From: Flexivirga sp.
Lineage (GTDB): Bacteria > Actinomycetota > Actinomycetes > Actinomycetales > Dermatophilaceae
Assembly: GCF_051955415.1 (NCBI RefSeq)
Contig: NZ_JBQCGS010000071.1
Span: forward strand, 688 to 64,687
DNA length: 64,000 nucleotides
Direction: 5' to 3'
This document shows, in pieces, positions 28,257 to 45,494 of the stretch (positions are counted from its first letter, which is position 1; the number at the start of each line of letters is the position of its first letter). The notes below the pieces were generated by a model. That model searched no databases and was not told where the DNA came from. It was given only the letters and a program-made list of their open reading frames with translations. The position numbers and the translations under genes were made by a program.

Positions 28257-28937
28257 TCAGGCGTTCGGCGCTCCGAAGCGGAGGCCGTCGTAGATGAGGT
28301 CGACGACGGCGAGTGAGGTCTCCTGGCCTTCCGGGGTGGTCGAGGCCAGACATACGCCGCCGAGGGCGCGGGTCAGCTCCATCGGGGTGGCGTCCGGGCG
28401 GATGACGCCCGCGTCGATCGCCGGCTGGAGCACCCGGGCGGCGGACTCGCGCATGCGGTTGCGGGCCGACTCGAAGGTCTCCGGGTTGCCCTGCATCATC
28501 GAGCGCAGCAGGTTGATCAGGCCCATCTTGACGGCGTAATAGCCGACGAAGCCGCGCATCCACTCATGCAGGGCCTCGCCCGGCTCGAGCTCCTTCGGCA
28601 GGTCGTAGGAGCGTTGTTCCAGCGCCGCGACCTGGTCGCCATACACCGCGAGCACGAGGTCGCAGCGGGTCGGGAAGTGCCGGTAGAGGGTGCCGATGCC
28701 GACGCCGGCGCGCTTGGCGATCTCATCCAGCGTGGTGTCGACGTCGTCGGTGAAGGCCGTGGTCGCGACGTCGATCAGCTTCTGCCGGTTGCGGGCGGCA
28801 TCCGCGCGCAACGGCTTGCCGCACGCACCCAGCGCCGACGAATCCGTTGATCTGTCAACGTTTTCCGATCCATCGGACGCCGTCTTGGACGAGCGCTTCG
28901 ACGCCGTTGCCGAGCCGCTTGTGGCCATCGTTCTCAC
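28257..28937 (-). CDS. TetR family transcriptional regulator
   Basis: HTH TLDEIAKRAGVGIGTLYRHFPTR. Divergent from an MFS gene. Start GTG 28937 or ATG 28928. Confidence 0.9.
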   Translation of the reverse strand: MRTMATSGSATASKRSSKTASDGSENVDRSTDSSALGACGKPLRADAARNRQKLIDVATTAFTDDVDTTLDEIAKRAGVGIGTLYRHFPTRCDLVLAVYGDQVAALEQRSYDLPKELEPGEALHEWMRGFVGYYAVKMGLINLLRSMMQGNPETFESARNRMRESAARVLQPAIDAGVIRPDATPMELTRALGGVCLASTTPEGQETSLAVVDLIYDGLRFGAPNA

Positions 28938-28965
28938 ACCTCATGGCAATCCCCGGTTGCTAAAC

Positions 28966-29007
28966 CGGAGGATTCCTCCGTATAGTTCTAAACGGAGATC
29001 ATCTCCG
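28966..29007. promoter_or_regulatory. Two 15-bp palindromes, candidate TetR operators
   Basis: CGGAGGA-T-TCCTCCG (28966-28980) and CGGAGAT-C-ATCTCCG (28993-29007) in the TetR/MFS divergent spacer. Confidence 0.6.
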
Positions 29008-29050
29008 CTTCTATTCATGGTACGCCTCGCTCTCGCGAAGGACACAACTC

Positions 29051-30667: not shown

Positions 30668-30885
30668 GTCCGTAGCACCTAGCTGCGGGGTAATCGGCGC
30701 GGTCCGGGATCGGGGGTCTCGGGCCGCGCTGAGCCTTCTGCCTTCGCTCCTCGCGGGCTAGCGGCAGCCCAAACCCGGTGTCGCAAAGTCATCGGGCCCG
30801 AATATGTTGGTGCCGTGGCGGATCGGCGCACTGCCGGAGACGCGTGCCACCGGTCCGAGGGACGCGGCGAGCACGAAGGTGGCGC

Positions 30886-31668
30886 ATGCGCATGAGACTG
30901 CACGGCAGCTTCGCACTCGTCACCGGCAGCAGTGGCGGCCTGGGTGCCGCCGTCGCCGCTGAGCTCCACCGCCACGGTGTGCGGGTCGTCGTCCACGGCC
31001 GGGATCCGCAGCGCACCGGCGACGTCGCCCGCGAGCTCGGAGCCCACCATGTGCTGGCCGATCTGGCCGACCCGACCCAGCACGAGCGCCTCGTCGCCGA
31101 GGCCACCGCGGCGCACGGCCGGCTCGACCTGGTCGTGCACAACGCCGGCGTCGGCTGGCAGGGGGCGTTCGACAGCATGCCGCCCGAGCGCATCCCCCAC
31201 CTCATCGCGACCGATCTCACCGCCCCGATCGCGCTGACCCGTCGGGTGCTGCCCGGAATGCTCGCCGCCGGACACGGACAGCTGTGCTTCGTCACCAGCA
31301 TCGCCGGACGCACCGGGGTCGCCGGCGAGGCCGTGTATGCCGCCACCAAGGCCGCCCTGGACGCCTTCGCCGACTCGTTGCGGCTGGAAGCGGCCGGGAC
31401 CGGTGTCGAGGTCACCACGTTCGTCCCGGGCGTCGTCGACACCGACTTCTTCACCCGGCGTGGCACCCCCTACCAACGCCGACGGCCCCGCCCGCGGGAC
31501 GTGGAATCCGTTGCCCGGCAGGTCGTTTCGCTGATCGCATCCGGACGGCCCGAACGGTTTGCCGACCCAGCCCTCCGGGTAGCACCGGTCGTGCGGTCGG
31601 CATGGCCGGCGGCATACACGCGGTTGGCCGGGCGTTGGGGCGAGAAGACCCGGTTAGGAGACGACTGA
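30886..31668 (+). CDS. SDR family oxidoreductase
   Basis: ORF 30778..31668. ATG 30886. ALVTGSSGGLGAAV, NAG, YAATKAAL motifs. Confidence 0.85.
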   Translation: MRMRLHGSFALVTGSSGGLGAAVAAELHRHGVRVVVHGRDPQRTGDVARELGAHHVLADLADPTQHERLVAEATAAHGRLDLVVHNAGVGWQGAFDSMPPERIPHLIATDLTAPIALTRRVLPGMLAAGHGQLCFVTSIAGRTGVAGEAVYAATKAALDAFADSLRLEAAGTGVEVTTFVPGVVDTDFFTRRGTPYQRRRPRPRDVESVARQVVSLIASGRPERFADPALRVAPVVRSAWPAAYTRLAGRWGEKTRLGDD

Positions 31669-32571
31669 ATGCTGTGGCTGGTCCTCCTGCTCGCCTGTGC
31701 GGCCGCGTTCGCGTTCGCGCTGTCGGCGATGCTCGAGCAACGCGCCGCCTCGCAGGCCACCGGCGAACACTCACTGGGCACCGTGCACGGCTTCTCGGCG
31801 TTCGTGCGTGCGCTGGTCCGCCGCAAGCTGTGGCTGACCGGTTTCGTGATCAACAACCTCGGCTTCGTGATCCAGGCCGCGGCGCTGCACCTCGGCAGTG
31901 TCGCCCTGGTCCAGCCGGTGATGGTCAGCCAGGTGCTCTTCGCGCTGCTGCTGACCGGTGTGGGCAGTCGGCTGACCCCGGGCCTGAAGGACTGGGCCTA
32001 CGTGTTGTGCATCTGCGCCGGCCTCATCGTCCTGCTGTCGGTCGGCGGCGCCGCGCCCCTGCACGGCACCCCCAACCGGGAGCAGGTCATCTGGGTACTG
32101 CTGGCGATGGTCGCCGTGGTCGTGCTGCTGGTCCTCTTCGCGCGGCAGCAGAGCGACCCGCGCGCGTCCAGCCTGATGCTGGCCGTCGCGGCCGGAGTCT
32201 GCTTCGCCGGCAACGCCGTGCTCACCAAGCTGACCACCGAGGATCTCTTCGGTCCGGGAGTGCTGCACACCGCGCTGGACTGGCCGGGCTACAGCCTCGC
32301 GGTCGCCACCGCGTCCGGCCTGCTGATCGAGCAGGCCGCCTTCGCCAACGGCTCGCTGCCGTGGGCCGTTGCGGCGATGAGCATCACCAACCCGGTGATC
32401 AGCTACCTGGCCGGCATCTTCGGCTTCCACGTCACCGCCCCGCACACGCCGGGCGCGCTCGCCGCGGTGTCGGTGACCGCGGTGCTCATCGGCATCGGCA
32501 TCGCCGGTCTGGCCCATTCACCGCTCACTCGCAGTGAAACACGGGACCACTCACAGGTGGCGGTGACATAG
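31669..32571 (+). CDS. DMT-superfamily-like (NIPA/EamA-like) membrane protein
   Basis: 300 aa, about 9 TM. Its ATG immediately follows the SDR stop (TGAATG). Confidence 0.6.
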   Translation: MLWLVLLLACAAAFAFALSAMLEQRAASQATGEHSLGTVHGFSAFVRALVRRKLWLTGFVINNLGFVIQAAALHLGSVALVQPVMVSQVLFALLLTGVGSRLTPGLKDWAYVLCICAGLIVLLSVGGAAPLHGTPNREQVIWVLLAMVAVVVLLVLFARQQSDPRASSLMLAVAAGVCFAGNAVLTKLTTEDLFGPGVLHTALDWPGYSLAVATASGLLIEQAAFANGSLPWAVAAMSITNPVISYLAGIFGFHVTAPHTPGALAAVSVTAVLIGIGIAGLAHSPLTRSETRDHSQVAVT

Positions 32572-32579
32572 TGTGATAC

Positions 32580-33245
32580 ATGCCTTCGCGACCAGTAGCG
32601 CAGCAGGGGGCCTGCGCCCTGATCATCGACCGGGAGTTCGTGCGCACCTCCGCGTTACGGGCGGGTCGGATGTTGCTCGAGGCGGTCGTCATACCCGCCC
32701 TCATCCTGTATGCCGCGCTGGCCACCGTCGGCCAGCTCTGGGGGCTGATCTCGGTGCTGGTGTGGTCCGGCCTGATCGTCGCGGTGCGGCTGCGGACGCA
32801 GTCGTCGGTGCCGCGCACGCTCCTCATGGCGGTGCTGATGCTGGTCGGGCGCACCACACTCTCGCTGGCGTTGTCCAGCGTCTACATCTACGTGCTGCAG
32901 CCGATCGCCGGATCCTTGCTGATGGCCTTGATCTTCCTGGGCAGCGCGGCCATCGGACGGCCGATCACCAAGCACCTGGCCCGCGACTTCATCGCGCTGC
33001 CGCAGATGCTGATGCACGACAAACGGGCACACCGGATGTTCAGCCAGGTCTGCATCCTGTGGGGCGCGTCCCGGCTCATCGACGTCGGCATGAGCATGGG
33101 CTTCCTGCAGTTCGGCGCGCGCAACGCCATCCTGTCGCGCGGCGTCTTCAGCACGTCGCTGACACTGCTGACCGTCGCCGTCTGCATCGCCTGGGGCTGG
33201 AGCCGGTTGCGCCGGATGCCCGAGTTCTCGATCTCGTTCGCTTAG
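32580..33245 (+). CDS. Hypothetical polytopic membrane protein
   Basis: 221 aa, about 5-6 TM, 8 nt after the previous gene. No family recognised. Confidence 0.6.
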   Translation: MPSRPVAQQGACALIIDREFVRTSALRAGRMLLEAVVIPALILYAALATVGQLWGLISVLVWSGLIVAVRLRTQSSVPRTLLMAVLMLVGRTTLSLALSSVYIYVLQPIAGSLLMALIFLGSAAIGRPITKHLARDFIALPQMLMHDKRAHRMFSQVCILWGASRLIDVGMSMGFLQFGARNAILSRGVFSTSLTLLTVAVCIAWGWSRLRRMPEFSISFA

Positions 33246-33270
33246 CGGTGCCGTTCGGCGGTGCCTCGCC

Positions 33271-35304
33271 GTGAGCGCCACCCAGGACCACCGCCATCAC
33301 CCGGTGCACCTGCCCTCGCTGCACTGGCCCGCCGTGCCACGCGCACACCGGCCGCGGTTGCGCACCGAGCTGCTGGGCGGGCTCGCGCTCTTCGTGGTCT
33401 ACCTGTTGGTCGACGCGCTCAACGGCCCGTCGCGCGCCGCCGTGGCGAAGACGCACGCCGAGCGCGTCATACAGCTGGAGCAGTGGTTGCACCTCGACAT
33501 CGAGGGGTCGCTCAACTCCTGGCTGGCCGCGCGGCCCGGGCTGATGACGGCGGCCAACTACGAATACGCCTCGACCTACATCGTCTCGGCCGCCCTGCTG
33601 CTGGTCATCACCTACGTGTGGACGCCGGCGCTCTACCGGCAGGCACGCAACTCCTTCGCGCTGCTCAACCTGATGGCGTTCGGCTGTTTCGCGTTGCTGC
33701 CGCTGATGCCGCCACGGATGATGCCGGGGTTCGTCGACACCGTGGCGACCGGTGGCTCGGTCGGTTCGTGGGGTTCCCCGATCGTGGCCGGCGCCAACCA
33801 GTTGGCGGCGATGCCGTCCCTGCACATCGCCTGGGCGCTGTGGGTCAGCGTGATGCTGGCCCGGATGTCGCGCCGCCGATGGCTGCAGGTGGCGAGCGCG
33901 TTCCACGTGGCCGTGACGCTGTATGTCGTGGTCGCGACCGCCAACCACTACGTGCTCGACGCGGTCGGGGCGGGCATCGTCGTGGTGGCCGCGGTCGCGC
34001 TCACCGAATGGCGCGCACGACGCCGCCCGGGTGCGGCGCTGCCCACCGCCGACGCGTTCTTCCTGGACGTCGAGCGCCCCGGGCATGCGCAGAACGTCGG
34101 CGGGTTGGCGCTGCTCGGACCGACGGCACCCACCCTGCAGGACCTGCACGAGACGCTGGCCGCCCAGCTGGGCCGGTTGCCGCACTTCACCGACCGGCTC
34201 GCGTCACCTGCACTGCACCGCTGGGTGCCCGCCGGGCCGATCGACTGGTCGCACCACCTGGTCGAGCGGTCCCTGCCGGACGGCGCCGGTCCGGCGGCGC
34301 TGGACGAGCTGGTCGGGCAGCTCACCTCCGAGGAACTGCCGCGCGACCGGCCGCTGTGGCGGGCCTGGCTGATCCACGGCCTCGGTGACGAAGCGGCCTT
34401 CTGCATCGTGATGCACCACTGCATGGCCGATGGCATCGGAGCCGTCGCGAAGCTGCTGCACATCCTGCAACCGCCCTATCGACTGCCGATCCCCGACCGG
34501 GACGGCCCATCGGCGCTGCAGCGCGGAGCGGGCGTCATACAGGGACTGGCGCAGCTGGCGACCGACGGCAGACCGGCGGCCCAACTGCCTCGCGGCGGGA
34601 CACGGCGCGGGTTCGCCACCCTCGAGGTGCCGCTGGAGCAGGTCCGCGCCGCCGCCCGCGCGCACCGGATGCGGGTCACCGAGCTGCTGCTGGCCGCCAC
34701 CGGGAGCGCCCTGGCACACACCGATCCGAACCTCGCGAGATCGTGCGCCGGGCAGCTGCGCGTGTCCGTCCCGGTCATGCTTCGCGCGCCCGCTGACAAC
34801 AGCGACGACACCGGCAACGACACCGACGGCGGCAACCTGACCGGGGCGGTCATCGTCGACACCCCGGCCCGCGACGCACCGATCGCCGCGCTACGCGATG
34901 AGGTTCGTGACCACGCGAGCGCCATCCGCACACCGACCCGGGCGCTCGCCTCACGGTGGGTGATGGCCACGGCGCTGCGTGCCGTGCCCCACGCGGGCCG
35001 GCGGTGGTTCGCCCGAACGGTCTACGGCCCCCAGTATTTCCAGGCGATCGTGTCGAACATGCCCGGCCCGGACCAGCGGTTCACCCTCGCCGGTGCTCCG
35101 GTCGGACGGGTGCAGCCGATCCTGCCCCCGGCACCCGGCATCCCGCTGACCATCGGGGCGCTGAGCTGGTGCGGATCGCTCGGCATCACGGTGGTCACCG
35201 ACGCGGACCTGCTGGATGCGCGCGACTTCGCCGACGCACTCGGCGAACGACTCGCCACGGCGGTGAGCGACCTCGTCGCCGAGCCCGGCTCTACGAGAGT
35301 CTGA
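33271..35304 (+). CDS. Fusion: PAP2_C (IPC/sphingomyelin-synthase-like) membrane domain + WS/DGAT acyltransferase
   Basis: The N-terminal ~250 aa are polytopic with AMPSLHIAW and ATANHYVLDAVG motifs. The C-terminal ~420 aa carry the WS/DGAT active site VMHHCMADGIG. Single uninterrupted ORF. Confidence 0.8.
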   Translation: MSATQDHRHHPVHLPSLHWPAVPRAHRPRLRTELLGGLALFVVYLLVDALNGPSRAAVAKTHAERVIQLEQWLHLDIEGSLNSWLAARPGLMTAANYEYASTYIVSAALLLVITYVWTPALYRQARNSFALLNLMAFGCFALLPLMPPRMMPGFVDTVATGGSVGSWGSPIVAGANQLAAMPSLHIAWALWVSVMLARMSRRRWLQVASAFHVAVTLYVVVATANHYVLDAVGAGIVVVAAVALTEWRARRRPGAALPTADAFFLDVERPGHAQNVGGLALLGPTAPTLQDLHETLAAQLGRLPHFTDRLASPALHRWVPAGPIDWSHHLVERSLPDGAGPAALDELVGQLTSEELPRDRPLWRAWLIHGLGDEAAFCIVMHHCMADGIGAVAKLLHILQPPYRLPIPDRDGPSALQRGAGVIQGLAQLATDGRPAAQLPRGGTRRGFATLEVPLEQVRAAARAHRMRVTELLLAATGSALAHTDPNLARSCAGQLRVSVPVMLRAPADNSDDTGNDTDGGNLTGAVIVDTPARDAPIAALRDEVRDHASAIRTPTRALASRWVMATALRAVPHAGRRWFARTVYGPQYFQAIVSNMPGPDQRFTLAGAPVGRVQPILPPAPGIPLTIGALSWCGSLGITVVTDADLLDARDFADALGERLATAVSDLVAEPGSTRV

Positions 35305-35387
35305 GGCAGAGCTCCTCCCTGGTGGCCTGGTCCTCATGCGCAGGTCGTCGGTCCACGAAAGATCCTGCAGCGGGCGATCCCGCCGGG

Positions 35388-36647
35388 TCACTCCGGCGGT
35401 GGGCCCCACACCAGCGCCAGGAACAGCTGCGCGCGCTGCGCCGGGTCGTCCAGCGCCGCACCGAAGATGTCGCGCAACTGGTCGAGGCGGTAACGGACGG
35501 TCTGCGGATGGATGTGCAGCTCGGCGGCCACGGCGCGTCGCGACCCGAAGTGCCGCAGCCAGCTGGTCAGCGTTTCCGCCAGCCGCTCGCGCGTCCCGTC
35601 GGGCAGCCGGTCCAGCGGCGCAAGCACACGGGCGCGCAACGCGGCCAGCAGCTCCGGGTTGCGGTGCACCAGCATCGTGTCGATGTGTTCGGGCACGAAG
35701 ATCATCCGGTTGGGCAGGGCGCCGGCGTCCTGCAGCCGGCGGGCGCTGCGGGCCACCCGCATACTGCGCCGGGCGTCGGTGACCGGCACCGGCGGGCCGA
35801 CGACCGCCGGCAGCTCGCCGAGTGCTCGTTGCAAACGGGGCTCGATCCCGGCCACCCAGGGCACCAGCCAGCCGACGACGTCTCCCACGTGCACCACCAG
35901 CCACTCCGGGTCCAGCCGCGGTCGCGTCGGCAGCGGCGGGTCGTCCTGGTCGCGCAGGAGCACGAAGGCGAGTTCGTCCGGCACCGCCCAGCCGGCTTGG
36001 TCGGCGGCGAGCAGCACGCCGTTGCGGTCGGGAAGGGTCGACATCAGCAGGCCGGACAGCTCACCACGGGCTCGGTGCGAGACCAGCCCACGCTCGGACT
36101 GCTCGCGCACGTAACCATCGGTCGTGCGTGCCGAGATGTCGTGGGTGAGCATGAAGAGCGTCTCGGCCAACCGGGACAGCCGGCGGATGTCCAGCCCGAC
36201 CTGCATCGCCTCGTGCGAGATGTGCGCCCACGCCACCCGGGCGCCCGCCTGGTATGCCGTCAGGATGCCGTTGAGGTCACGCCCCTGCTGGAATTGCGCC
36301 CGGCCCAGCTGATCGAACATCGCCACCAGCAACGGGTCGAGTTCGGGCGCTGTCGCCGGCAGCGTCAGCGCATCCTGGGTGACCGCGCCGATCAGCCGGG
36401 ACACGACCTGCTCGGCGGTGTCGGCGAGTTCGGTGCCGCGGTCCGCGGCGAACTCCAGGCAGGCCGGCCACAGCACTTGGAGTTCCTGGGCGACCGACAT
36501 CATGATCTGCGGGAATCCGGCCACCAGGCGTGCCTGCAGCAGACGCAGCTCGGCCGGCTGTGGCCCGGGCAGGTCAGCGACGCTCGCAGTGGTCCCCACG
36601 ATCATCAGGTCTATCACTTGGTGACAAACAACGGCAGTCAGCGCCAC
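35388..36647 (-). CDS. PucR family transcriptional regulator
   Basis: C-terminal PucR HTH: LAETLTSWLRHFGSRRAVAAELHIHPQTVRYRLDQLRDIFG. Divergent from hpnC. Confidence 0.85.
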   Translation of the reverse strand: MALTAVVCHQVIDLMIVGTTASVADLPGPQPAELRLLQARLVAGFPQIMMSVAQELQVLWPACLEFAADRGTELADTAEQVVSRLIGAVTQDALTLPATAPELDPLLVAMFDQLGRAQFQQGRDLNGILTAYQAGARVAWAHISHEAMQVGLDIRRLSRLAETLFMLTHDISARTTDGYVREQSERGLVSHRARGELSGLLMSTLPDRNGVLLAADQAGWAVPDELAFVLLRDQDDPPLPTRPRLDPEWLVVHVGDVVGWLVPWVAGIEPRLQRALGELPAVVGPPVPVTDARRSMRVARSARRLQDAGALPNRMIFVPEHIDTMLVHRNPELLAALRARVLAPLDRLPDGTRERLAETLTSWLRHFGSRRAVAAELHIHPQTVRYRLDQLRDIFGAALDDPAQRAQLFLALVWGPPPE

Positions 36648-36695
36648 ACATTTCGGTGCAGCGCTTCACGATTCACCCGGGGCAAGCTGAGACCA

Positions 36696-37556
36696 ATGCT
36701 CGACGCAACCAGCCCCTCCGGCGTCAGCACCGCTGACGCTGCGCCCAGCGCCGCGACCGAGAACTTCCCGGTTGCGTTGCGGATGCTGCCTGCTCGTCGC
36801 CGTCGGGCACTGTTGGCCGTCTACGACGTCGCACGCCACATCGACCAGCTGGGTGACGCTGCCCCGGGCAACCGCACCCAGCAGCTGCTGACGTTTCGCG
36901 CCGACCTGCAACGGTTAGTGGACGGTGGGACGCCGCAGCATCAGGTGTTGCGCGACCTCGCGCCATACGCACGCGATTGTGCCCTGCCACTGCAGGCATT
37001 CGACGACTTGATCGAGGCGAACCTGATGGACCAGGAGGTCACGCGCTACGCGGACCTGCCTGCGCTGCTCGAATACTGCGCACTGTCGGCGCACCCGATC
37101 GGCCGGCTCGTGCTGGCAGTGTTCGGCCAGTCCACGCCGGGACGTGTCGACCGCAGCGACACCGTCTGCGCGGCACTGCAGATCCTCGAACACTGTCAGG
37201 ACGTCGTCGAGGATCACCGGGCCGGACGCGTCTACCTGCCGCAGGACCAGTTGTCCGCTGCCGGGCTGACCGACACGACGATGCTCGCTCCCGACCATGC
37301 GGCCGCGCTGCGGTCCGTGGTGCTGGCGCAAGTCCTCACCTGCCGCCAAATGCTCTCTGCCGGAACGACACTCGTGGGAGAGTTGCGCGGCTGGGCCCGG
37401 ATCGCGGTCGCCGGATATGTCGCCGGAGGTCTCGCGACGGCCGATGCGCTGCAGCGCGCCGGTGGTGAGGTCACCGGTGCCCAGACGGTCCGGCCACGAC
37501 GAGCAACGTTGCTGCGGCACGGTATTCGGCTGTTGCTCACTTCGGGGAGGCGATGA
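36696..37556 (+). CDS. hpnC: Squalene synthase HpnC
   Basis: Last 286 codons of ORF 34956..37556. ENFPVALRMLP...YDVARHIDQLGD...RVYLPQD. Confidence 0.85.
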   Translation: MLDATSPSGVSTADAAPSAATENFPVALRMLPARRRRALLAVYDVARHIDQLGDAAPGNRTQQLLTFRADLQRLVDGGTPQHQVLRDLAPYARDCALPLQAFDDLIEANLMDQEVTRYADLPALLEYCALSAHPIGRLVLAVFGQSTPGRVDRSDTVCAALQILEHCQDVVEDHRAGRVYLPQDQLSAAGLTDTTMLAPDHAAALRSVVLAQVLTCRQMLSAGTTLVGELRGWARIAVAGYVAGGLATADALQRAGGEVTGAQTVRPRRATLLRHGIRLLLTSGRR

Positions 37557-37557
37557 C

Positions 37558-38436
37558 GTGACAGAGCTGACGAGGGACGCGGCGATGGCGGAGGCCGAGC
37601 AGATCACCCGCACCGAGGCGCGCAACTTCTACTACGGCATCCGGTTGTTGCCCACGCCCAAGCGGCAGGGCCTGTGCGCGCTCTACGCGCTGGCCCGCCG
37701 CATCGACGACATCGGCGACGACGACGCACCCGTGGAGACCAAACGTGCTTCGTTGGCACTGGTGCGCAAACAGCTGTCCGACATCGACGCTTCCACCGAT
37801 CCCGTCATGGCGGCGGTCGCCCAGACGGCACGCCGTTTCCCGGTGCCGCTGGAAGCCTTCGAGGAGTTGCTGGACGGCGTCGAGATGGACCTGAGCGGCG
37901 CGACCTACGAAACCTTCGAGGACCTGCGGCTCTACTGCCGATGCGTCGCCGGGTCGATCGGCCGGCTGTGCCTGTCGATCTTCGGCAACGGCACGGCCCG
38001 CACCGATCCACGGGCCCCGCTCTTCGCCGACCAGCTCGGGATCGCGTTGCAGCAGACCAACATCCTGCGTGACATCCGTGAGGACCTGCTGATCGGCCGG
38101 GTCTACCTGCCGCGCGAGGAGCTGGAGCGCTTCGGCGTCCGGCTGCAACTGGACGACACCGGCGCGCTGCACGACCCGGACGCGCGACTGGCGGCATACA
38201 TCTGCTTCGCCGCGGACCGCGCGCAGGCCTGGTACGACCTCGGGTTGCGGTTGCTGCCGCAACTGGACCACCGCAGCACCGCGTGCTGTGCGGCGATGGC
38301 CGGCATCTATCACCACCTGCTGCTGCGCATCCGCGACAACCCGACGGCCGTCTACGAACGCCGAATGTCGTTGCCGCCGCACGAGAAGGGCCGTGTCGCA
38401 CTGATGTCGCTCGTCAAGGCGGTGTTGCCGGTATGA
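37558..38436 (+). CDS. hpnD: Presqualene diphosphate synthase HpnD
   Basis: GTG 37558 with GGGGAGG 7 nt upstream. RNFYYGIRLLP...YALARRIDDIGDD...RVYLPREE. Confidence 0.85.
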   Translation: MTELTRDAAMAEAEQITRTEARNFYYGIRLLPTPKRQGLCALYALARRIDDIGDDDAPVETKRASLALVRKQLSDIDASTDPVMAAVAQTARRFPVPLEAFEELLDGVEMDLSGATYETFEDLRLYCRCVAGSIGRLCLSIFGNGTARTDPRAPLFADQLGIALQQTNILRDIREDLLIGRVYLPREELERFGVRLQLDDTGALHDPDARLAAYICFAADRAQAWYDLGLRLLPQLDHRSTACCAAMAGIYHHLLLRIRDNPTAVYERRMSLPPHEKGRVALMSLVKAVLPV

Positions 38437-40907
38437 CGCACTCCGCACTCCCTGCCGCACGCCGGGCCGTCTGTGTCATCGGCGGGGGCCTCGCCGGGAT
38501 CACCGCGGCACTGGACCTGGCCGACCGTGGCCTGGAGGTCACCCTGCTGGAGTCACGGGCCCGCCTCGGCGGCCTGACGCACTCCTTCCGCCGCGGAGAA
38601 CTGTGGGTGGACGGCGGCCAGCACGTGTTCCTGCGGTGCTGCACGTCCTACCTCGGCCTGCTCGACCGGCTCGGCGTGCGACACCTGACCTACCTGCAGG
38701 AGCGCCTCGACGTACCCATCGCCAGCGAACGATCCGCCGACCGGACCCTCCTGCGCCGCAACGACCTGCCCGCCCCGCTGCACCTGAGCGCGGCCTTGCT
38801 CCGACACCGCTGGATGCCGCTGCGGCAACGACTGGCCGTCGGTCGCGTCGCACTGGCTCTCGGCCGGCTGGACCCCGCCGACCCGCAGGTCGACGCCCAG
38901 AGCTTCGGCGGGTGGCTGCGGCAGCACGGCGCCGACGACCGGTCGATCGAGGTGCTCTGGGAGCTGATCGGCAAAGCCACGCTCAACGCCGACGCGGACC
39001 GCTGCTCACTGGCGCTGGCAGCGACCGTCTTCCAGCTCGGCATGCTCGCCGACAAGGGCGCCGCGGACATCGGATGGTCCCGTGTCCCGTTGCAGCAGTT
39101 GCACGGGGACGCCGCCGACCGCGCCCTGGCGGAGGCCGGCTGCACGGTGCGGCTACGCAGCAAGGTCAGCGCGGTGGTGCCCGGCGACACGGGCGTCCGG
39201 GTGGTCGCCCACGCGGGCGAGGAGACGTATGACGCCGTGGTGCTCGCCGTCCCGCCAGCCGCATTGGAGCGGATGATCGACCCGATCGCGCTCGGGCTGC
39301 CCGCCGACCTGGCCGACGGCCTCGGTGTCTCCCCGATCGTCAACGTGCACGTGGTGTTGGACCGGCCGGTGCTGGACACGGATTTCGTTGCCGCGGTGGA
39401 CAGTCCATTGCAATGGGTCTTCGACCGCAGCGCCGCCGCCGGGATCCAGGACCGGCGCCAGTGTCTCGCGGTCTCGGTCTCGGCCGCCGACGAACTCATC
39501 GGGATGACAGCCGCGCAACTACGGGACTGGGCACTGCCGCACCTTTGCGACCTGCTGCCGGGCATGGCCGGCGCGCAGGTGCTGGACTTCTTCGTGACGC
39601 GGGAGCCGGAGGCGACCTTCCGCGCGGCGCCGGGAAGCGCTCGGCTGCGGCCGGGCGCGGCGACCAGTCGGCCGGGTGTCGCCCTGGCCGGTGCGTGGAC
39701 CGACACCGGCTGGCCGGCCACGATGGAGGGCGCGGTCCGCAGCGGGCACGCGGCCGCCACCGTGCTCCTTGCGGGTCTGCCGGCCGATCTACCGGCCAGT
39801 CTGCCGGCCCGGTCGACCCGGCACTCGGTCGGCGGCTCGACGCCGGCGGTCCGGCGCTCGGCCGCTGATCCCGTCCCGGCACCGGCGGACCGTGACGACG
39901 GTCCACGGGTGCTGCTGCACGCGCAGGAGTTGACCCAGACGTTGGTGACTCCGGCACTGCGCAAGGCGGTGGACACCCTCGACGGGCTCGAACACCTGGT
40001 GGTCGCCTACCACCTCGGCTTCGTGGACAAGCGCGGCAACCCGGTCCGCGAGGACGGCGGCAAGAAGTTGCGCCCGATGCTGGCGCTGCTGGCGGCGCAG
40101 GCGGTCCGTGCCGACCCGGCGCAGGCGGTCAGCGGCGCGGCGGCGCTGGAGCTGCTGCACAACTTCTCGCTCGTGCACGACGACATCATGGATCGCGACC
40201 GCACCCGCCGGCATCGTGAGACGGTCTGGTCGGTCTGGGACGAAGCGACCGCGATCCTCGGCGGTGACGCGATGCACGCCCTCGCCTTCGAGACCGTGCT
40301 GGCCGACCCCGGACCACACGCCGCGGAGGCCGGACACCTGCTCGCCGCCACCACCCGCGACCTCATCCGCGGACAGATCCTCGACATGGGATTCGAGCAA
40401 CGCCACACGGTTTCACTGGGCGAATGCCGCGCCATGGCCGCTGCCAAGACCGGTGCGCTGCTGCGCTGCAGCACCGAACTGCCGGCGGTGCTGCTGGGCG
40501 CCTCCCACGACCAGCGCACGGCGCTGGCGACATACGGCCGGGCGGTCGGGGATGCCTTCCAACTGGTCGACGACCTCCTCGGGATCTGGGGAGTGCCGAG
40601 CGTCACCGGCAAGTCCAACCACTCCGACCTGCGCGCCAAGAAGCGGTCGCTGCCGGTCACCTGGGCACTGGAGCAGCCCGGACAGCGGGCACTCGCCGCG
40701 TGGGTCGACTCCGGCGAGCCGACCGACTCCGAAGTCGCCCGCATCGCAACGCAATTGGACCAGCTCGGTGCCAGACAGTGGTGCCGGGAGAGCGCCGACG
40801 CAGCCATCTGCGAAGCCGTCGACGCGCTGCACCGGGCCGATCTCGACGAGACGGCCGTCACCGGACTGACCGAGGTGGCGCACTACGTCGCCGGAAGGGA
40901 CATGTGA
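38433..40907 (+). CDS. hpnE: Fusion: HpnE (FAD-dependent hydroxysqualene dehydroxylase) + polyprenyl diphosphate synthase
   Basis: ATGA overlap with hpnD. N-terminal VCVIGGGLAGITAALDLA... to ...WPATMEGAVRSGHAAA. About 60-aa linker, then KKLRPML, LVHDDIMD and FQLVDDLLG motifs. No stop between the parts. Confidence 0.8.
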   Translation: MTHSALPAARRAVCVIGGGLAGITAALDLADRGLEVTLLESRARLGGLTHSFRRGELWVDGGQHVFLRCCTSYLGLLDRLGVRHLTYLQERLDVPIASERSADRTLLRRNDLPAPLHLSAALLRHRWMPLRQRLAVGRVALALGRLDPADPQVDAQSFGGWLRQHGADDRSIEVLWELIGKATLNADADRCSLALAATVFQLGMLADKGAADIGWSRVPLQQLHGDAADRALAEAGCTVRLRSKVSAVVPGDTGVRVVAHAGEETYDAVVLAVPPAALERMIDPIALGLPADLADGLGVSPIVNVHVVLDRPVLDTDFVAAVDSPLQWVFDRSAAAGIQDRRQCLAVSVSAADELIGMTAAQLRDWALPHLCDLLPGMAGAQVLDFFVTREPEATFRAAPGSARLRPGAATSRPGVALAGAWTDTGWPATMEGAVRSGHAAATVLLAGLPADLPASLPARSTRHSVGGSTPAVRRSAADPVPAPADRDDGPRVLLHAQELTQTLVTPALRKAVDTLDGLEHLVVAYHLGFVDKRGNPVREDGGKKLRPMLALLAAQAVRADPAQAVSGAAALELLHNFSLVHDDIMDRDRTRRHRETVWSVWDEATAILGGDAMHALAFETVLADPGPHAAEAGHLLAATTRDLIRGQILDMGFEQRHTVSLGECRAMAAAKTGALLRCSTELPAVLLGASHDQRTALATYGRAVGDAFQLVDDLLGIWGVPSVTGKSNHSDLRAKKRSLPVTWALEQPGQRALAAWVDSGEPTDSEVARIATQLDQLGARQWCRESADAAICEAVDALHRADLDETAVTGLTEVAHYVAGRDM

Positions 40908-40920
40908 GTGAGCACCCCAC

Positions 40921-40965
40921 CAAGTCTTCCCTGCTTCGCTCCTCCGATACTTCGCGAGGACCCCG
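40921..40965 (+). repeat. Dispersed repeat family, degenerate copy F
   Basis: CAAGTCTTCCCTGCTTCGCTCCTCCGATACTTCGCGAGGACCCCG aligns with part of copy E (41633-41676). Confidence 0.5.
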
Positions 40966-40966
40966 C

Positions 40967-43012
40967 ATGACGCAGGTCTCCACACGCTCATCGACCGGCA
41001 CTTCGACCGATCCCATGGCCGCCAGGGCCCGCGAGACGCTGGAGCGCGCCACCCGACGGCTGCTCGAGCTGCAGCTGCCCAGCGGCGCCTGGAAGGGCGA
41101 GCTGGAGACCAACGTCACCATGGACGCCGAAGACATGATGCTGCGTGTCTTCCTCGGCATCGACACCGCCGAGACCCGCGAGCAGACCGCCCGGTGGATC
41201 CGCAGCCGGCAGCGCGCGGACGGCACCTGGGCGACCTTCGCCGGCGGACCGGCGGACCTGTCCACCACGGTCGAGGCCTGGATCGCCTTACGGATGGCGG
41301 GCGACAAACCAGGCGCCGAGCACATGGCCGCCGCGCGTGAATTCGTCCTGTCCCAGGGCGGTCTGCAGCAGACCCGGGTGTTCACCCGGATCTGGTGCGC
41401 CCTCTTCGGCTGGTGGGACTGGGCGGACCTGCCCGCCATGCCGCCGGAGTTGATGTATCTGGGCAAACATGTCCCGCTCAACATCTACGACTGGGGCTGC
41501 TGGGCGCGCCAGACCATCGTGCCGCTGACCATCGTGTGCACCCTGCGACCGAAGCGACGGATGAAGTGGGATCTGTCGGAGATCACCTGCACGCCCACCG
41601 GCGAACCAACTGCATCTCGGTCTCGGTCTCGACACATGCTTCCCCGCTCCGCTCCGCGGAATACGTCGCGGGGCCCCGAGCCCGCTCCTCGCGACAATCG
41701 ACCGGCGAGCCTTTTCAGCGGCCTGGACAAGGCCCTGCACGCCTACCATCGGCACGCGGTCGGACCGGTCCGCCGCAACGCCCTGCGCCGGGCAGCGGAG
41801 TGGATCATCGCGCGGCAGGAGGCCGATGGCGGCTGGGGCGGCATCCAGCCGCCGTGGGTCTACTCGATCCTCGCGCTGCACGCCCTGGGCTACCCACTGG
41901 ACCATCCCGTGCTGCGCGCGGGCATCGAGGGTCTCGAGGGGTTCGTCATCACCGAGGACACCGCGGACGGTCCGGTGCGCCGGCTGGAGGCCTGCCAGTC
42001 GCCGGTCTGGGACACCGGTCTGGCGATCAACGCACTGCTCGACGCCGGTGTGGATCCTCGTGATCCGGCCTTGCGCCGCGCCGCGGACTGGCTGATGCAG
42101 GAGCAGATCACCGTGCCCGGCGACTGGACGGTGCGGCACCCCAAGCTGCCGCCCGGCGGCTGGGCCTTCGAATACGCCAACGACAACTATCCGGACACTG
42201 ACGACAGCGCCGTGATCGTCATGGGCCTGCGCCGCGTGATCACCACCCACGGTCCGTTGCACGAACAGGCGGTGTCCCGTGGCATCGCCTGGACGGCGGG
42301 CATGCAGTCCAAGGACGGAGGCTGGGGCGCCTTCGACATCGACAACACCAGCAAGTGGCCCGCGAAGCTGCCGTTCTGCGACTTCGGTGCCGTCACCGAC
42401 CCGCCGTCCGCCGACGTCACGGCCCACGTCGTGGAAATGCTTGCTGCGGTGGGCCGTTCGCGGGGTGCGCGGTGTCAGCGCGGTGTGCAGTGGCTGCTGG
42501 ACCACCAGGAGCCGGACGGGTCCTGGTTCGGCCGGTGGGGCGCCCACCACATCTACGGCACCGGGGCGGTGGTGCCCGCGCTCGTGGCAGCCGGTGTCTC
42601 CCCGGCGGCGGGACCGATCCGCTCGGCGGTCCGCTGGCTGGAGACCCACCAGAACGCCGACGGCGGCTGGGGCGAGGACCTGCGATCGTATGACGACCCG
42701 GCCTGGATCGGACGCGGTGAGTCGACGCCGTCGCAGACCGCCTGGGCGCTGATGGCCCTGGTGGCCGCCGGTGAACTCGGCGAAAGCCTCCAACGCGGCA
42801 TCGACTACCTCGCCGAAACACAACTCCCGGAAGGTGATTGGACCGAAGACCGATTCACCGGCACCGGTTTCCCCGGCGACTTCTACATCGCCTACCACCT
42901 CTACCGGCTCATCTTCCCCGTCTGGGCGCTCGGCCGCGCGGTCCGGGCCATGAGCCAGATCGATCAGGGTGACCGCCCCGATCTCGGTCTCGTCGCGAAG
43001 GTCGCGACATGA
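40967..43012 (+). CDS. shc: Squalene-hopene cyclase
   Basis: ORF 40424..43012. QW repeats, DxDD-type motif (YPDTDDSAV), GGWGA/GSWFGRWG. ATG 40967 is preceded by GAGGA. Alternative GTG 40904 overlaps the upstream stop (GTGA). Confidence 0.9.
   Translation: MTQVSTRSSTGTSTDPMAARARETLERATRRLLELQLPSGAWKGELETNVTMDAEDMMLRVFLGIDTAETREQTARWIRSRQRADGTWATFAGGPADLSTTVEAWIALRMAGDKPGAEHMAAAREFVLSQGGLQQTRVFTRIWCALFGWWDWADLPAMPPELMYLGKHVPLNIYDWGCWARQTIVPLTIVCTLRPKRRMKWDLSEITCTPTGEPTASRSRSRHMLPRSAPRNTSRGPEPAPRDNRPASLFSGLDKALHAYHRHAVGPVRRNALRRAAEWIIARQEADGGWGGIQPPWVYSILALHALGYPLDHPVLRAGIEGLEGFVITEDTADGPVRRLEACQSPVWDTGLAINALLDAGVDPRDPALRRAADWLMQEQITVPGDWTVRHPKLPPGGWAFEYANDNYPDTDDSAVIVMGLRRVITTHGPLHEQAVSRGIAWTAGMQSKDGGWGAFDIDNTSKWPAKLPFCDFGAVTDPPSADVTAHVVEMLAAVGRSRGARCQRGVQWLLDHQEPDGSWFGRWGAHHIYGTGAVVPALVAAGVSPAAGPIRSAVRWLETHQNADGGWGEDLRSYDDPAWIGRGESTPSQTAWALMALVAAGELGESLQRGIDYLAETQLPEGDWTEDRFTGTGFPGDFYIAYHLYRLIFPVWALGRAVRAMSQIDQGDRPDLGLVAKVAT
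41612..41710 (+). repeat. Dispersed repeat family, copy E (two degenerate units) inside shc
   Basis: GCATCTCGGTCTCGGTCTCGACACATGCTTCCCCGCTCCGCTCCGCGGAATACGTCGCGG...GCTCCTCGCGACAATCGACCGGCGAGC. Encodes ASRSRSRHMLPRSAPRNTSRGPEPAPRDNRPAS. Confidence 0.6.
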
Positions 43013-44487
43013 ACGCCCCACGAAGTGGCCAGCTGCTGACGCCCCTGCGGATCGAACGCCTCGCCCTCGAACGCGGAATGCGCACGGCGCCATACGTCTC
43101 CGGCCGTGGCCCGCGTGGCCGGGCACCACGGACCGACGTCCCGACGGTGCTCGCCGGCGTCGCCGGCGCACTGGCGCCGCAAGTGCGCCCGGGCGACCTG
43201 GTCGTCGCCGACCGACTACGCGCCGACGGTCGCGAGTTCGCGCTGCCGTCGGCGCCGGTCGTCGCCGGCGAGTTGCGCCGTGCCGGCCTGACCGTGCACG
43301 TCGGCACCATCGAGAGCACCGACCACGTCGTGACCGGTGACGAACGCGCCGCGCTCGCCGCAGGCGGCGGATTGGCGGTGGACACCGAGTCCGCTTTTCT
43401 GGCAGCGGAACTCGAGCCCAGGACGTTGGTGGTCGTGCGGGCGATCGTCGACACCGCGGCCGACCCGTTGGTGCATCCCGGCACGCTGCGCCGTGGTGTG
43501 ACCGCACTGCGTTCGCTGCGCCGTGCCGGGCCGGTGCTGCAGCAGTGGCTCGACGCCTGCGCCCCGCACACCGTCCTGCGCGCCGAACCCCAATCGGTCT
43601 GTGCAGGTGTCGAGCGGGCCATCGAGAACGTCGAACGCGCCCTGGCCAAGCACGGCGCACCCGTCTACGTCCGCCGGCAGATCGTGCACAACACCCACGT
43701 GGTCGCCGAGCTCGAACGCAGCGGCGCCGTCTTCGTGCAGGAGCTGGACGAGGTGCCCGAGGGCGCGACCGCAGTGCTGGCCGCGCACGGTGTCGCTCCG
43801 TCGGTGCGGGTGCAGGCCACCGAACGCCGCCTGCAGGTCATCGATGCGACCTGTCCCCTGGTCGCCAAGGTGCACCAGGAGGTGCACCGCTTCTCCACCG
43901 CGGGCCGCACCGTCTTCCTGATCGGACACGCCGAGCACGAGGAGGTGGTGGGCACCCGCGGAGAGGCGCCCGACGACGTCGTGGTGATCGAGACCGTGGC
44001 GGACGCCCGCAGTGTGCACGTGGCCGACCCGTCGCAGGTCTCCTATGTCATGCAGACCACCCTGTCGGTGGAGGAGGCGGAGGAGATCGCCGGCGTCTTG
44101 CGCGAACGATTCCCCGCGCTGCAGGGCCCGCGGCGCGACGACATCTGTTACGCCACCAGCAACCGCCAGCACGCCATCCGCGAGGTCGCCGCAGCCAGCG
44201 ACCTGGTGCTGGTCGTCGGCTCGGCCAACTCGTCCAACTCGATGCGGCTGGTCGAGGTCGCGGCGGCCCATGGGACCCCGGCGCACCTGGTGGAGGACGC
44301 CTCCGACATACGGCTGGAGTGGCTGCGCGACGTGCGCACCATCGGCGTCAGCGCGGGCGCCTCCGCCCCCGCAGCACTGGTCGAACAGCTCGTCGAAGCA
44401 CTCGCCGCCCTCGGCGAGCTGGAGATCGGCCGACGCGGCGGCATCACCGAGACCATGCAATTCACCCTGCCCAGAGAGGTCGTCTGA
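43009..44487 (+). CDS. ispH: Fusion: HpnG-like phosphorylase/nucleosidase + IspH (HMBPP reductase)
   Basis: ATGA overlap with shc. The N-terminal ~175 aa are PNP/UDP-like (VAGALAPQVRPGDLVVAD...DTESAF). The rest is IspH (SVCAGVERAI, IVHNTHVV, DATCPLVAKVH, GHAEHEEVVG, SNSMRLVEV). Confidence 0.8.
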   Translation: MNAPRSGQLLTPLRIERLALERGMRTAPYVSGRGPRGRAPRTDVPTVLAGVAGALAPQVRPGDLVVADRLRADGREFALPSAPVVAGELRRAGLTVHVGTIESTDHVVTGDERAALAAGGGLAVDTESAFLAAELEPRTLVVVRAIVDTAADPLVHPGTLRRGVTALRSLRRAGPVLQQWLDACAPHTVLRAEPQSVCAGVERAIENVERALAKHGAPVYVRRQIVHNTHVVAELERSGAVFVQELDEVPEGATAVLAAHGVAPSVRVQATERRLQVIDATCPLVAKVHQEVHRFSTAGRTVFLIGHAEHEEVVGTRGEAPDDVVVIETVADARSVHVADPSQVSYVMQTTLSVEEAEEIAGVLRERFPALQGPRRDDICYATSNRQHAIREVAAASDLVLVVGSANSSNSMRLVEVAAAHGTPAHLVEDASDIRLEWLRDVRTIGVSAGASAPAALVEQLVEALAALGELEIGRRGGITETMQFTLPREVV

Positions 44488-44489
44488 CC

Positions 44490-45494
44490 ATGCCCCACAT
44501 GCCCTTCCACCAGTCCGTCCGCCTCGGGCAGTACCTGCTGAAGCAGAAGCTCGCCGGACGGGACAAATACCCGCTGCTGGTGGAGCTCGAGCCGCTCTTC
44601 GCCTGCAACCTCAAGTGCGTCGGCTGCGGCAAGATCCAGGAGCCGGCCTCCATGCTCAAACAACGCATGCCGGTCGAACAGGCGGTGGCCGCCATCGAGG
44701 AGTGCGGCGCACCGATGGTCTCCATCGCCGGCGGTGAACCGTTGATGCACCCGCAGATCCACGAGATCGTGCAGGAGCTGCTGGACCGCAAGAAGATCGT
44801 CTTCCTGTGCACCAACGCGTTGCTGATGAAGCGGCACATCGACAAGTTCACGCCGCACCGCAACTTCTCCTGGATGGTCCACGTCGACGGGATGAAGGAG
44901 CGGCACGACGCGTCGGTCAGCCACGAGGGCGGTTTCGAGGCAGCCATCGAGGCGATCAAGCTGGTCCAGTCGCGCGGCTTCCGGGTGATGACGAACACCA
45001 CTGTGTTCAATAGTGATTCACCGCAGGACGTCATCGACGTCCTCAACTACCTCAATGACGAGGTCAAGGTCGACAACATGCAGATCGCCCCCGGCTACGC
45101 CTACTGGAAGGCCCCGGACCAGGAGGGCTTCCTCGGTGTCGAGGAGACCCGCACGCTCTTCGCCAAGGCCTTCGGCGAGGGCCGCCGCAAGAAGTGGCGG
45201 CTCAACCACTCGCCACTCTTCCTCGACTTCCTGGAGGGCAAGGTCGACTACGAGTGCACGCCGTGGGCCATCCCGTCATACAGCCTCAAGGGATGGCAGC
45301 GTCCTTGCTACCTGCTCGACGACGGCTACGTGTCGACCTATGAGGAGCTCATCCAGGACACCGACTGGGAGGCGTTCGGCCGCGGCAAGGACGAGCGTTG
45401 CGCGAACTGTATGGCGCACTGCGGCTACGAACCCACCGCGGTGATCGCCACCACCAACTCGTTGCGGCAGACCATCCGGGCGGCGGTGGCGTGA
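44490..45494 (+). CDS. hpnH: Adenosyl-hopene transferase HpnH (radical SAM)
   Basis: Last 334 codons of ORF 43545..45494. LEPLFACNLKCVGCGKI radical SAM cluster motif. C-terminal CANCMAHCGYEP. Confidence 0.9.
   Translation: MPHMPFHQSVRLGQYLLKQKLAGRDKYPLLVELEPLFACNLKCVGCGKIQEPASMLKQRMPVEQAVAAIEECGAPMVSIAGGEPLMHPQIHEIVQELLDRKKIVFLCTNALLMKRHIDKFTPHRNFSWMVHVDGMKERHDASVSHEGGFEAAIEAIKLVQSRGFRVMTNTTVFNSDSPQDVIDVLNYLNDEVKVDNMQIAPGYAYWKAPDQEGFLGVEETRTLFAKAFGEGRRKKWRLNHSPLFLDFLEGKVDYECTPWAIPSYSLKGWQRPCYLLDDGYVSTYEELIQDTDWEAFGRGKDERCANCMAHCGYEPTAVIATTNSLRQTIRAAVA

Follow-up and report, generated by a model that had tools for sequence, protein, structure and literature searches.

A conserved four-gene module encoding a PAP2_3::WS/DGAT fusion protein accompanies the actinobacterial hopanoid cluster and is a candidate for hopanoid side-chain tailoring

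In a 64,000-nucleotide stretch of a Flexivirga genome (contig NZ_JBQCGS010000071.1; the whole stretch is referred to here as the window), four tightly packed genes encode a short-chain dehydrogenase/reductase (SDR), a DMT-superfamily membrane protein, a VC0807-like membrane protein and a 677-residue protein in which a PAP2_3 domain is fused to a wax-ester synthase/diacylglycerol acyltransferase (WS/DGAT) domain (Table 1). Hopanoids, which are bacterial counterparts of sterols, gave rise to the most abundant molecular fossils, and this module probably decorates them, because it travels with the hopanoid cluster in many actinobacteria. On the basis of sequence comparisons, we propose that the four genes form a module for lipid tailoring that is accessory to the actinobacterial hopanoid cluster, in which the SDR would act as a ribosylhopane reductase and the fusion would acylate a hopanoid and add a phospho-head group to it. 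We regard the chances of this proposal as evenly balanced.

To describe the genomic context, we compared the proteins of the window with 80 loci that encode the fusion, each including at most 10 kb of sequence on either side. A DMT gene lies no more than 1.5 kb upstream of the fusion gene in 59 of 75 loci, a VC0807 gene directly upstream in 40 of 77 and an SDR gene upstream in 42 of 68, and a PucR-type regulator gene is found within 1 kb downstream in 49 of 73. Both hpnD and the gene for squalene-hopene cyclase (SHC) occur within 10 kb in 43 of the 54 loci that have at least 9 kb of flank on both sides. In the commonest gene order (SDR>DMT>VC>FUS> PucR< hpnC>...), the PucR gene is the conserved hinge between the four-gene operon and the hopanoid operon. 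The order in Actinomadura and Spirillospora is FUS> hpnH< shc<..., and in two Frankiales-like genomes (L047 and L078) it is VC>FUS>hpnC...hpnH>, and the two remaining genes, SDR and DMT, are found past hpnH at the cluster's distal end. SHC was present in 15 of 15 genomes with a fusion-type match compared with 92 of 401 evenly sampled Actinomycetes genomes overall, which is to be read as a pattern and not as a P value because related genomes are not independent. The first-pass annotation of the window had noted the neighbouring hopanoid locus; with the genes adjacent in at least three different orders and their phylogenetic distribution nested, the link is far stronger than could be known from one locus. 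The same annotation had pointed to a nearby ino1 gene. An ino1 homologue was absent from the 10 kb around the fusion in all 80 loci, and we rejected this association.

The SDR gene is, of the four, the most widely linked to the hopanoid cluster. Orthologues (E ≤ 1e-38) were found in 64 of the 401 sampled genomes, 60 of which are SHC-positive, and in 40 of the 64 the SDR gene lies within 10 kb of SHC on the same contig. The fusion is missing from many of these genomes. In fusion-free genomes, the SDR gene was convergent with hpnH at a distance of 15–70 nucleotides in four cases, headed the hpnC operon in one and lay 2.7 kb from hpnH in one, and these six regions contained no WS/DGAT, PAP2_3, DMT or VC0807 homologue. 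Comparison of the SDR with the PDB returned generic FabG-like matches only, with no clue to the substrate. The enzyme for conversion of ribosylhopane to bacteriohopanetetrol (BHT) ‘has not yet been established’ (PMC12583986), a 2026 review draws this step as non-enzymatic (PMC13459092), and a 2025 preprint describes some Actinomycetota that carry HpnH yet lack known downstream tailoring enzymes (PMC12324291). It is reasonable, and no more than reasonable, to consider the SDR a candidate for the missing ribosylhopane reductase or for an enzyme that acts on the same side chain.

We found further variants of the module through the relatives of the WS/DGAT domain. Among 1.8 billion representative sequences, its nearest relatives were other PAP2_3 fusions, short stand-alone forms (41–49% identity) and fusions to an MGDG-synthase-like glycosyltransferase domain (GT28). 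In a midpoint-rooted tree of 125 domains from the best 150 matches, the PAP2_3-fused and stand-alone forms made up one clade (SH-aLRT 99) that was sister to a clade with five of the GT28 fusions (SH-aLRT 96 for the union), ‘sister’ here meaning nearest among the sampled domains because of the sampling and the rooting. Both clades stood apart from the other WS/DGATs in the tree. The stand-alone form can hold the same slot as the fusion, as at locus L085, where the order is SDR>VC0807>stand-alone WS/DGAT (49% identity)> PucR< hpnC...hpnH. At L087, a GT28::WS/DGAT gene is followed by a DMT-like gene and an SDR gene (56% identity) and then by the convergent hopanoid genes (hpnH<...hpnC<), and L084 and L086 hold the same partner genes. 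The GT28 fusions share with the window operon an SDR (45–56% identity), a DMT-like protein and a VC0807-like protein, and they abut hpnH and shc. They differ in the head-group domain, which is a cytoplasmic sugar transferase rather than the predicted outward-facing phosphotransferase of the window protein; both active sites of a GT28 fusion would therefore lie on one side of the membrane. A split arrangement was seen at L082 (G088:C3:784000-803000), where a WS/DGAT-only gene (42% identity) adjoins the PucR gene and the hopanoid operon, a PAP2_3 gene of weak similarity (33% identity) is transcribed in the divergent direction, and the VC0807 and SDR genes are at the other end of the hopanoid operon.

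Pfam searches placed three domains along the 677-residue protein: PAP2_3 (PF14378; 7e-45; residues 65–243), WS_DGAT_cat (residues 259–398) and WS_DGAT_C (residues 521–662). All three were present in all but two of the best 120 database clusters, and the best clusters are drawn from Flexivirga, Allobranchiibius, Nocardioides, Marmoricola, Nocardia, Rhodococcus and Aldersonia. A survey of GTDB in which each species was represented by a single genome detected at least 568 Actinomycetota species genomes that encode a relative, with further carriers in Mycolicibacterium, Micromonosporaceae, Amycolatopsis, Actinomadura, Kribbella, Kineosporia and Frankiales. Of the 401 sampled genomes, 13 hold a full-length fusion and two more hold partial forms. 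In an alignment of 80 fusions, PPR147–149, PSLH182–185, N225–H226, D230, PLW361–363, HH382–383, DG387–388 and SN595–596 are invariant or nearly so. The possibility, raised in the first-pass annotation, that the fusion is an assembly or frameshift artefact was rejected, since the architecture recurs in more than 100 listed database clusters and in hundreds of genomes, and 80 sequences show no variation in the catalytic residues of either domain. The AlphaFold2 (AF2) model of the full-length protein confidently shows two domains (pLDDT 89.4, pTM 0.84). The only frameshifted copy that we saw is in Flexivirga alba (L052:10001-11904), where the gene is in two frames, split near 10759-10762. Either the gene is a frameshifted pseudogene there or the sequence contains an error, and this copy accounts for a 415-residue ‘WS/DGAT only’ database entry (P0029). 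The fusion already has a generic NCBI/UniRef name, ‘bifunctional phosphatase PAP2/O-acyltransferase family protein’. Our literature searches found no paper on the PAP2_3::WS/DGAT architecture, in agreement with the earlier remark that no characterized enzyme of this kind was known, and none that links PAP2 or WS/DGAT with hopanoids or that cites PF14378.

The N-terminal half is, as modelled, an Aur1/inositol-phosphorylceramide (IPC)-synthase-like phospho-head-group transferase domain with its His-His-Asp triad predicted at the outer membrane face. PF14378 matched with 153.6 bits (cut-off 27) over positions 2–189 of the 190 in the profile. The domain had at first been called PAP2_C and IPC-synthase-like; PAP2_C (PF14360) scored 15.7 bits against a cut-off of 27 and was discarded, whereas the second label holds because PAP2_3, the correct family, is that of Aur1 and IPC synthase. 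Sequence searches of the PDB with the N-terminal domain, both single-sequence and profile-based, gave no real matches. Because Foldseek returned only the WS/DGAT/condensation fold with the full-length model, we modelled the N-terminal domain alone (pLDDT 89.3). Its best fold matches in VIA-align were IPC synthase (9vj4_A; Z 18.9, r.m.s.d. 2.9, 211 residues) and Aur1 (9ivc_A; Z 17.8, 219 residues), followed by LpxE (Z 15.3, 164 residues), the Bacillus subtilis PAP2-type PGP phosphatase 5jki (13.3), glucose-6-phosphatase (13.1) and SMSr (12.9). Hydropathy and the positive-inside rule predict six transmembrane helices with both termini inside, the Arg-rich loops 119–127, 197–204 and 246–252 on the inside, and PPR147–149, PSLH182–185 and NHxxxD225–230 in extracytoplasmic loops. 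When distant stand-alone PAP2_3 proteins were added to the alignment, H185 was still invariant and H226 and D230 were nearly so.

In Aur1, the corresponding triad (H255/H294/D298) is close to the luminal face, and the protein has its two termini in the cytosol (PMC12122681), an arrangement of termini and non-cytosolic active site that is likewise predicted for the N-terminal domain of the fusion. The two proteins belong to the same Pfam family and share similar triad spacing (41 and 4 residues in the fusion, 39 and 4 in Aur1), and the structural matches to 9ivc and 9vj4 cover 211–219 residues, including all six core helices and the helices between the first and second transmembrane segments. 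Identity of the N-terminal domain to fungal Aur1 and the animal sphingolipid synthases SMS/SMSr (8ijq) is only around 14–15%; the two N-terminal helices of Aur1 are missing from the fusion; Aur1 transfers inositol phosphate from phosphatidylinositol to ceramide and depends on a Kei1-type subunit, whereas no Kei1 subunit is known for the fusion, for which no Kei1 homologue search was made; and Aur1 and SMS do not carry a WS/DGAT partner. Moreover, the fusion is found in bacteria that are not known to make ceramide, and its genomic partners are hopanoid genes rather than sphingolipid genes.

The motifs and the predicted membrane face of this domain bear on two readings in which it would be a phosphatase. 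The classical PAP2 phosphatase signature is KxxxxxxRP, PSGH and SRxxxxxHxxxD (Stukey and Carman). The fusion has no Lys seven residues before PPR147–149, has PSLH at 182–185 and reads VVATANH226xxxD230 without the Ser-Arg; it thus lacks the motif C1 Lys and the motif C3 Ser-Arg of classical lipid phosphate phosphatases. The database name suggests a bifunctional Kennedy-pathway enzyme, with PAP2 making diacylglycerol from phosphatidic acid and DGAT making triacylglycerol from it. The same pairing of a PAP2-superfamily enzyme with a WS/DGAT exists in Streptomyces (Lpp-type PAP2) and Rhodococcus (atf), and PAP2 enzymes of Streptomyces coelicolor are reported to serve as phosphatidate phosphatases in triacylglycerol synthesis (PMC3599759). 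However, the fusion differs from such pairs in subfamily (PAP2_3, with the fold nearest to IPC synthase transferases), in motifs, in genomic context and in the predicted face of its active site, which would be outside, away from the inner leaflet on which phosphatidic acid is synthesized. While Rhodococcus jostii accumulates fat, its PAP2 homologues show hardly any expression, and enzymes of the HAD type have been put forward instead (PMC4850399). A Kennedy-pathway role would also leave the hopanoid synteny and the SDR, DMT and VC0807 proteins unexplained, and we consider it very unlikely.

In the second phosphatase reading, the PAP2_3 domain would dephosphorylate a prenyl or presqualene (di)phosphate supplied by HpnD or by a polyprenyl synthase, and the WS/DGAT domain would esterify the alcohol so formed; in a sphingolipid version, ceramide would be the acceptor and 1-O-acylceramide the product. 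Some PAP2 enzymes are prenyl- or presqualene-diphosphate phosphatases, isoprenoid alcohols are substrates of some WS/DGATs, and the locus adjoins the genes for HpnC, HpnD, HpnE and a polyprenyl synthase. However, the fold and motifs of the domain point to a transferase more than to a phosphatase, prenyl diphosphates occur in the cytoplasm but the active site is predicted to face outward, and the module tracks hpnH, which encodes the C35 side-chain step, most closely, with the SDR gene abutting hpnH. This reading appears highly improbable to us.

The C-terminal half was assigned to WS/DGAT in the first-pass annotation, and both WS/DGAT Pfam domains were found there (PF03007, 79 bits; PF06974, 56 bits), with H382, H383, D387 and G388 invariant in 80 fusions. 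The domain matched Marinobacter Ma-WS/DGAT (6chj) and Acinetobacter AtfA/WSD1 (7nxg) by sequence, and these were also its best fold matches in Foldseek (2.6e-21 and 1.1e-18, respectively). All three proteins have both Pfam domains and the HHxxxDG, PLW and SNxPGP motifs. Identity to the two known enzymes is about 20%, and the full-length subfamily model TIGR02946 gave 171 bits against a cut-off of 310; the domain belongs to a divergent clade of the family. This clade, of PAP2_3-fused, GT28-fused and short stand-alone forms sitting in hopanoid clusters, is separate from that of 6chj and 7nxg, and the fusion differs from both of these enzymes in that a six-transmembrane domain tethers it to the membrane. 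The WS/DGAT domain is predicted to be cytoplasmic because it depends on acyl-CoA and because the N-terminal domain is predicted to have both termini inside. The active sites of the PAP2_3 and WS/DGAT domains are thus predicted to face opposite sides of the membrane, which answers in the negative the question, posed earlier for an AlphaFold model, of whether they face the same leaflet. Any lipid shared by the two sites would therefore have to flip.

Such a topology is no obstacle for diacylglycerol, and in the main rival reading, which is possible though we think it doubtful, the fusion converts phospholipid into storage fat. The outward PAP2_3 domain would cleave a phospholipid, by head-group transfer or phospholipase-C-like hydrolysis, the diacylglycerol would flip spontaneously, and the cytoplasmic DGAT would turn it into triacylglycerol. 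Acylation would make the reaction irreversible and clear a membrane-disturbing by-product, and the link to hopanoids would be regulatory, with hopanoids replacing phospholipid. This chemistry is canonical, as Aur1/SMS-type enzymes release diacylglycerol (PMC12122681) and WS/DGATs (6chj and 7nxg) consume it, and the fusion is kept in SHC-less Mycolicibacterium and in lipid-metabolism neighbourhoods of Nocardia. If correct, this conversion would be of importance in oleaginous actinobacteria and in the lipid storage of mycobacteria. However, it gives no role to the SDR, the partner most tightly tied to the hopanoid genes. Furthermore, GT28 takes the place of PAP2_3 in the sister module and glycosyl transfer frees no diacylglycerol, a stand-alone WS/DGAT holds the hopanoid-cluster slot without PAP2_3, and the genome has two ordinary WS/DGAT paralogues elsewhere. 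This diacylglycerol-sink model was once the leading one; we downgraded it because of the GT28-type siblings, the siblings without a head-group domain and the independent link between the SDR and hpnH.

In the tailoring model that we favour, the SDR would reduce ribosylhopane, the product of HpnH and HpnG, to BHT. The WS/DGAT domain would then esterify a side-chain hydroxyl with fatty acyl-CoA at the cytoplasmic face; with its two tails, the product would have the shape of diacylglycerol or ceramide and would resemble the natural acceptors of MGDG synthase (diacylglycerol) and Aur1 (ceramide). The DMT-like and YciB-like proteins may help this acylated lipid, or a donor phospholipid, to get to the outer leaflet, where the PAP2_3 domain would move a phospho-head group from a phospholipid onto the acylated hopanoid and release diacylglycerol. 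Phosphatidylinositol would be the obvious head-group donor in actinobacteria. In the GT28-type siblings, a sugar would be added at the inner face in place of the phospho-head group. The model assigns a role to each component and accounts for the presence of two types of head-group transferase on one acyltransferase clade. The coupling of head-group transfer and acylation on one lipid, suggested in the first-pass annotation, is plausible and is favoured by the GT28::WS/DGAT sibling, but it is qualified by the predicted placement of the two sites on opposite faces. A stricter version holds that the SDR is an NAD(P)H-dependent reductase of ribosylhopane to BHT and, in addition, that the fusion builds an as yet undescribed class of lipid, a phospholipid analogue on a hopanoid backbone (a glycolipid analogue in the GT28-type sibling), in which BHT would replace glycerol or sphingosine and carry one fatty acyl ester and one phosphatidylinositol-derived phospho-head group. 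We think it unlikely that all of this holds.

Several observations weigh against the tailoring model. We know of no phospho-hopanoid that has been described, the known substrates of WS/DGATs are diacylglycerol and fatty alcohols, and with the two sites on opposite sides, a bulky tetrol lipid would need to be flipped. Mycolicibacterium elephantis and M. palauense hold the DMT and fusion genes, and no SHC was found in them with the query used. The Nocardia fusion gene lies away from hopanoid genes, with SHC elsewhere in those genomes; of the four genes, only those for the DMT-like protein and the fusion are present there, near genes for an MFS pump, a TetR regulator, a flavin monooxygenase, an esterase and an acyl-CoA synthetase. 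Streptomyces-type genomes in the 401-genome sample are SHC-positive in 31 of 31 cases yet have no fusion, and their SDR matches are not beside SHC. Stand-alone DMT and PAP2_3 pairs also occur without hopanoid genes nearby. Finally, co-regulated remodelling of the membrane, and not a common substrate, could lie behind the synteny.

The two membrane partners have only generic names. The DMT-like protein scored 102 bits with the DMT_1 model (cut-off 50) and fell into DMT/NIPA/EamA clusters of the protein atlas, and the third gene product scored 63 bits with NF041646, just below the cut-off of 65, and fell into VC0807/DUF3159/IspA(YciB)-like clusters. In the class sample, VC0807 matches at E ≤ 1e-32 were all in SHC-positive genomes with a fusion-type match and mostly beside SHC, and three weaker matches (E of 1e-26 to 1e-29) lay elsewhere. 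Stand-alone PAP2_3 orthologues (about 50% identity) are preceded by a DMT homologue (44% identity). In one Micromonosporaceae metagenome-assembled genome (L038:285-2867), two DMT copies flank the VC0807 gene 5′ of the fusion gene (DMT>VC>DMT>FUS). The genome that contains the window (G000) encodes, as paralogues, two stand-alone PAP2_3 proteins (37% and 32% identity) and two ordinary WS/DGATs (C81:53334-54026, C56:9344-10012, C91:25826-27055 and C94:3349-4626), none of which adjoins a DMT_1 homologue.

Parallels to the proposed module include the proteobacterial genes hpnI, hpnK, hpnJ, hpnO, hpnA and hpnB, which are likewise accessory genes clustered with hpnH and shc, with products that decorate the C35 side chain. 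HpnA and HpnB are uncharacterized, and HpnA is also a member of the SDR superfamily (PMC12583986). The families of the proteobacterial tailoring proteins are unrelated to those of the window module, and none of the genes was found in the cluster of the window. Acylated hopanoids occur naturally, for example N-acyl aminotriols and N-acylglucosaminyl-BHT (PMC8537080). The module offers four or five candidate genes, for a reductase, an acyltransferase, a head-group transferase and two membrane partners, for the open gap in BHT formation and in the Actinomycetota. To our knowledge, no acyltransferase or phosphotransferase has so far been assigned to hopanoid tailoring. What is new here is the full module of four to five genes, its swap variants, the core DMT and PAP2_3 pair and the independent SDR–hpnH link. 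If the tailoring model is correct, new composite hopanoids would be expected, the reading of soil hopanoid biomarkers would change, and a single polypeptide would couple chemistry at both membrane faces.

The window has a G+C content of about 70%, and its proteins share 74–82% identity with Flexivirga (Dermacoccaceae) proteins in database searches; domain assignments are from Pfam and NCBIfam profile searches of these proteins. A check of the open reading frames (ORFs) reproduced exactly the coordinates and spacing of the four genes given in the first-pass annotation, and the motifs that it quoted (AMPSLHIAW, ATANHYVLDAVG and VMHHCMADGIG) are all present in the 677-residue translation. Third-position G+C of 0.82–0.93 in all four ORFs backs each reading frame. 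The ATG of the DMT-like gene starts at the base directly after the SDR stop codon, and the next two gaps are 8 and 25 nucleotides; this tight spacing, along with a gene order that is kept across families, bears out the operon-like packing noted at first. A ribosome-binding-site-like sequence, GAAGGTGG, lies 5′ of the SDR ATG. A scan of positions 30500–36900 returned no promoter-like and one terminator-like site, the same as in shuffled sequences and thus uninformative.

Table 1 Coordinates of the four-gene module, its domains and motifs, neighbouring genes and SDR orthologues at other loci
Feature	Position (window unless a locus is given)	Strand	Basis or remark
SDR, classical short-chain dehydrogenase/reductase, 260 aa, operon gene 1	30886..31668	+	adh_short 1e-45
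DMT-superfamily (NIPA/EamA-like) polytopic membrane protein, 300 aa	31669..32571	+	NCBIfam DMT_1 102 bits
VC0807/DUF3159/YciB(IspA)-like membrane protein, 221 aa, 5–6 transmembrane segments	32580..33245	+	NF041646 63 bits
PAP2_3::WS/DGAT fusion protein, 677 aa	33271..35304	+	Pfam; AF2 model
Aur1/IPC-synthase-like phosphotransferase domain, six transmembrane segments, residues 30–251	33358..34023	+	PF14378 and fold match
His-His-Asp triad H185, H226, D230	33823-33825, 33946-33948, 33958-33960	+	Invariant in 80 fusions
WS/DGAT O-acyltransferase domain, residues 259–662	34045..35256	+	PF03007, PF06974
WS/DGAT motifs HHxxxDG (382–388), PLW (361–363), SNMPGP (595–600)	34414-34434 (HHxxxDG)	+	
PucR-type helix-turn-helix regulator	35388..36647	-	PF13556 HTH_30 1e-20; convergent with fusion, divergent from hpnC
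Hopanoid operon: HpnC, HpnD, HpnE::polyprenyl synthase, SHC, HpnG-like::IspH, HpnH, Dxs	36696..47305	+	
SDR orthologues at hpnH/hpnC, no fusion nearby	L088:10190-10945, L089:11530-12159, L092:10767-11357, L093:7202-7822, L091:14283-14903		

Proteins of the hopanoid operon matched the NCBIfam models TIGR03464, TIGR03465, TIGR03467, TIGR01507, TIGR03468 (weakly), TIGR03470 and TIGR00204, and the same search found no HpnO, HpnI, HpnJ or HpnK in this cluster. Two of its genes are themselves fusions. One joins an HpnG-like (PNP_UDP_1) domain to IspH (window 43009-44487; also L085:10282-11748 and L087:15502-17025); this two-domain gene follows shc in many actinobacterial loci, with a matching ORF cluster in 25 of 80. 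The other joins HpnE and a polyprenyl diphosphate synthase in a single 824-residue ORF (window 38433-40907), as in Flexivirga loci L001 and L052; the two are separate genes in most other loci. The polyprenyl synthase half scored best with the encapsulin-cargo polyprenyl transferase model NF041169, under its cut-off. Farther downstream, an 854-residue ORF (window 49414-51978) with coding-like third-position G+C had no NCBIfam match at 1e-10. The conserved Nocardia neighbourhood of the fusion, as in Nocardia cerradoensis (L021:12152-20500), also encodes an unknown 203-residue protein and sometimes an SDR, and its monooxygenase and esterase are of the Baeyer-Villiger type and an alpha/beta-hydrolase, respectively. 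Directly 5′ of the window operon are genes for a TetR regulator and a DHA2-type MFS pump (window 28257-30667), which are conserved only in Flexivirga (L001 and L052); next to the Nocardia fusion, weaker MFS homologues are again present, but on the downstream side.

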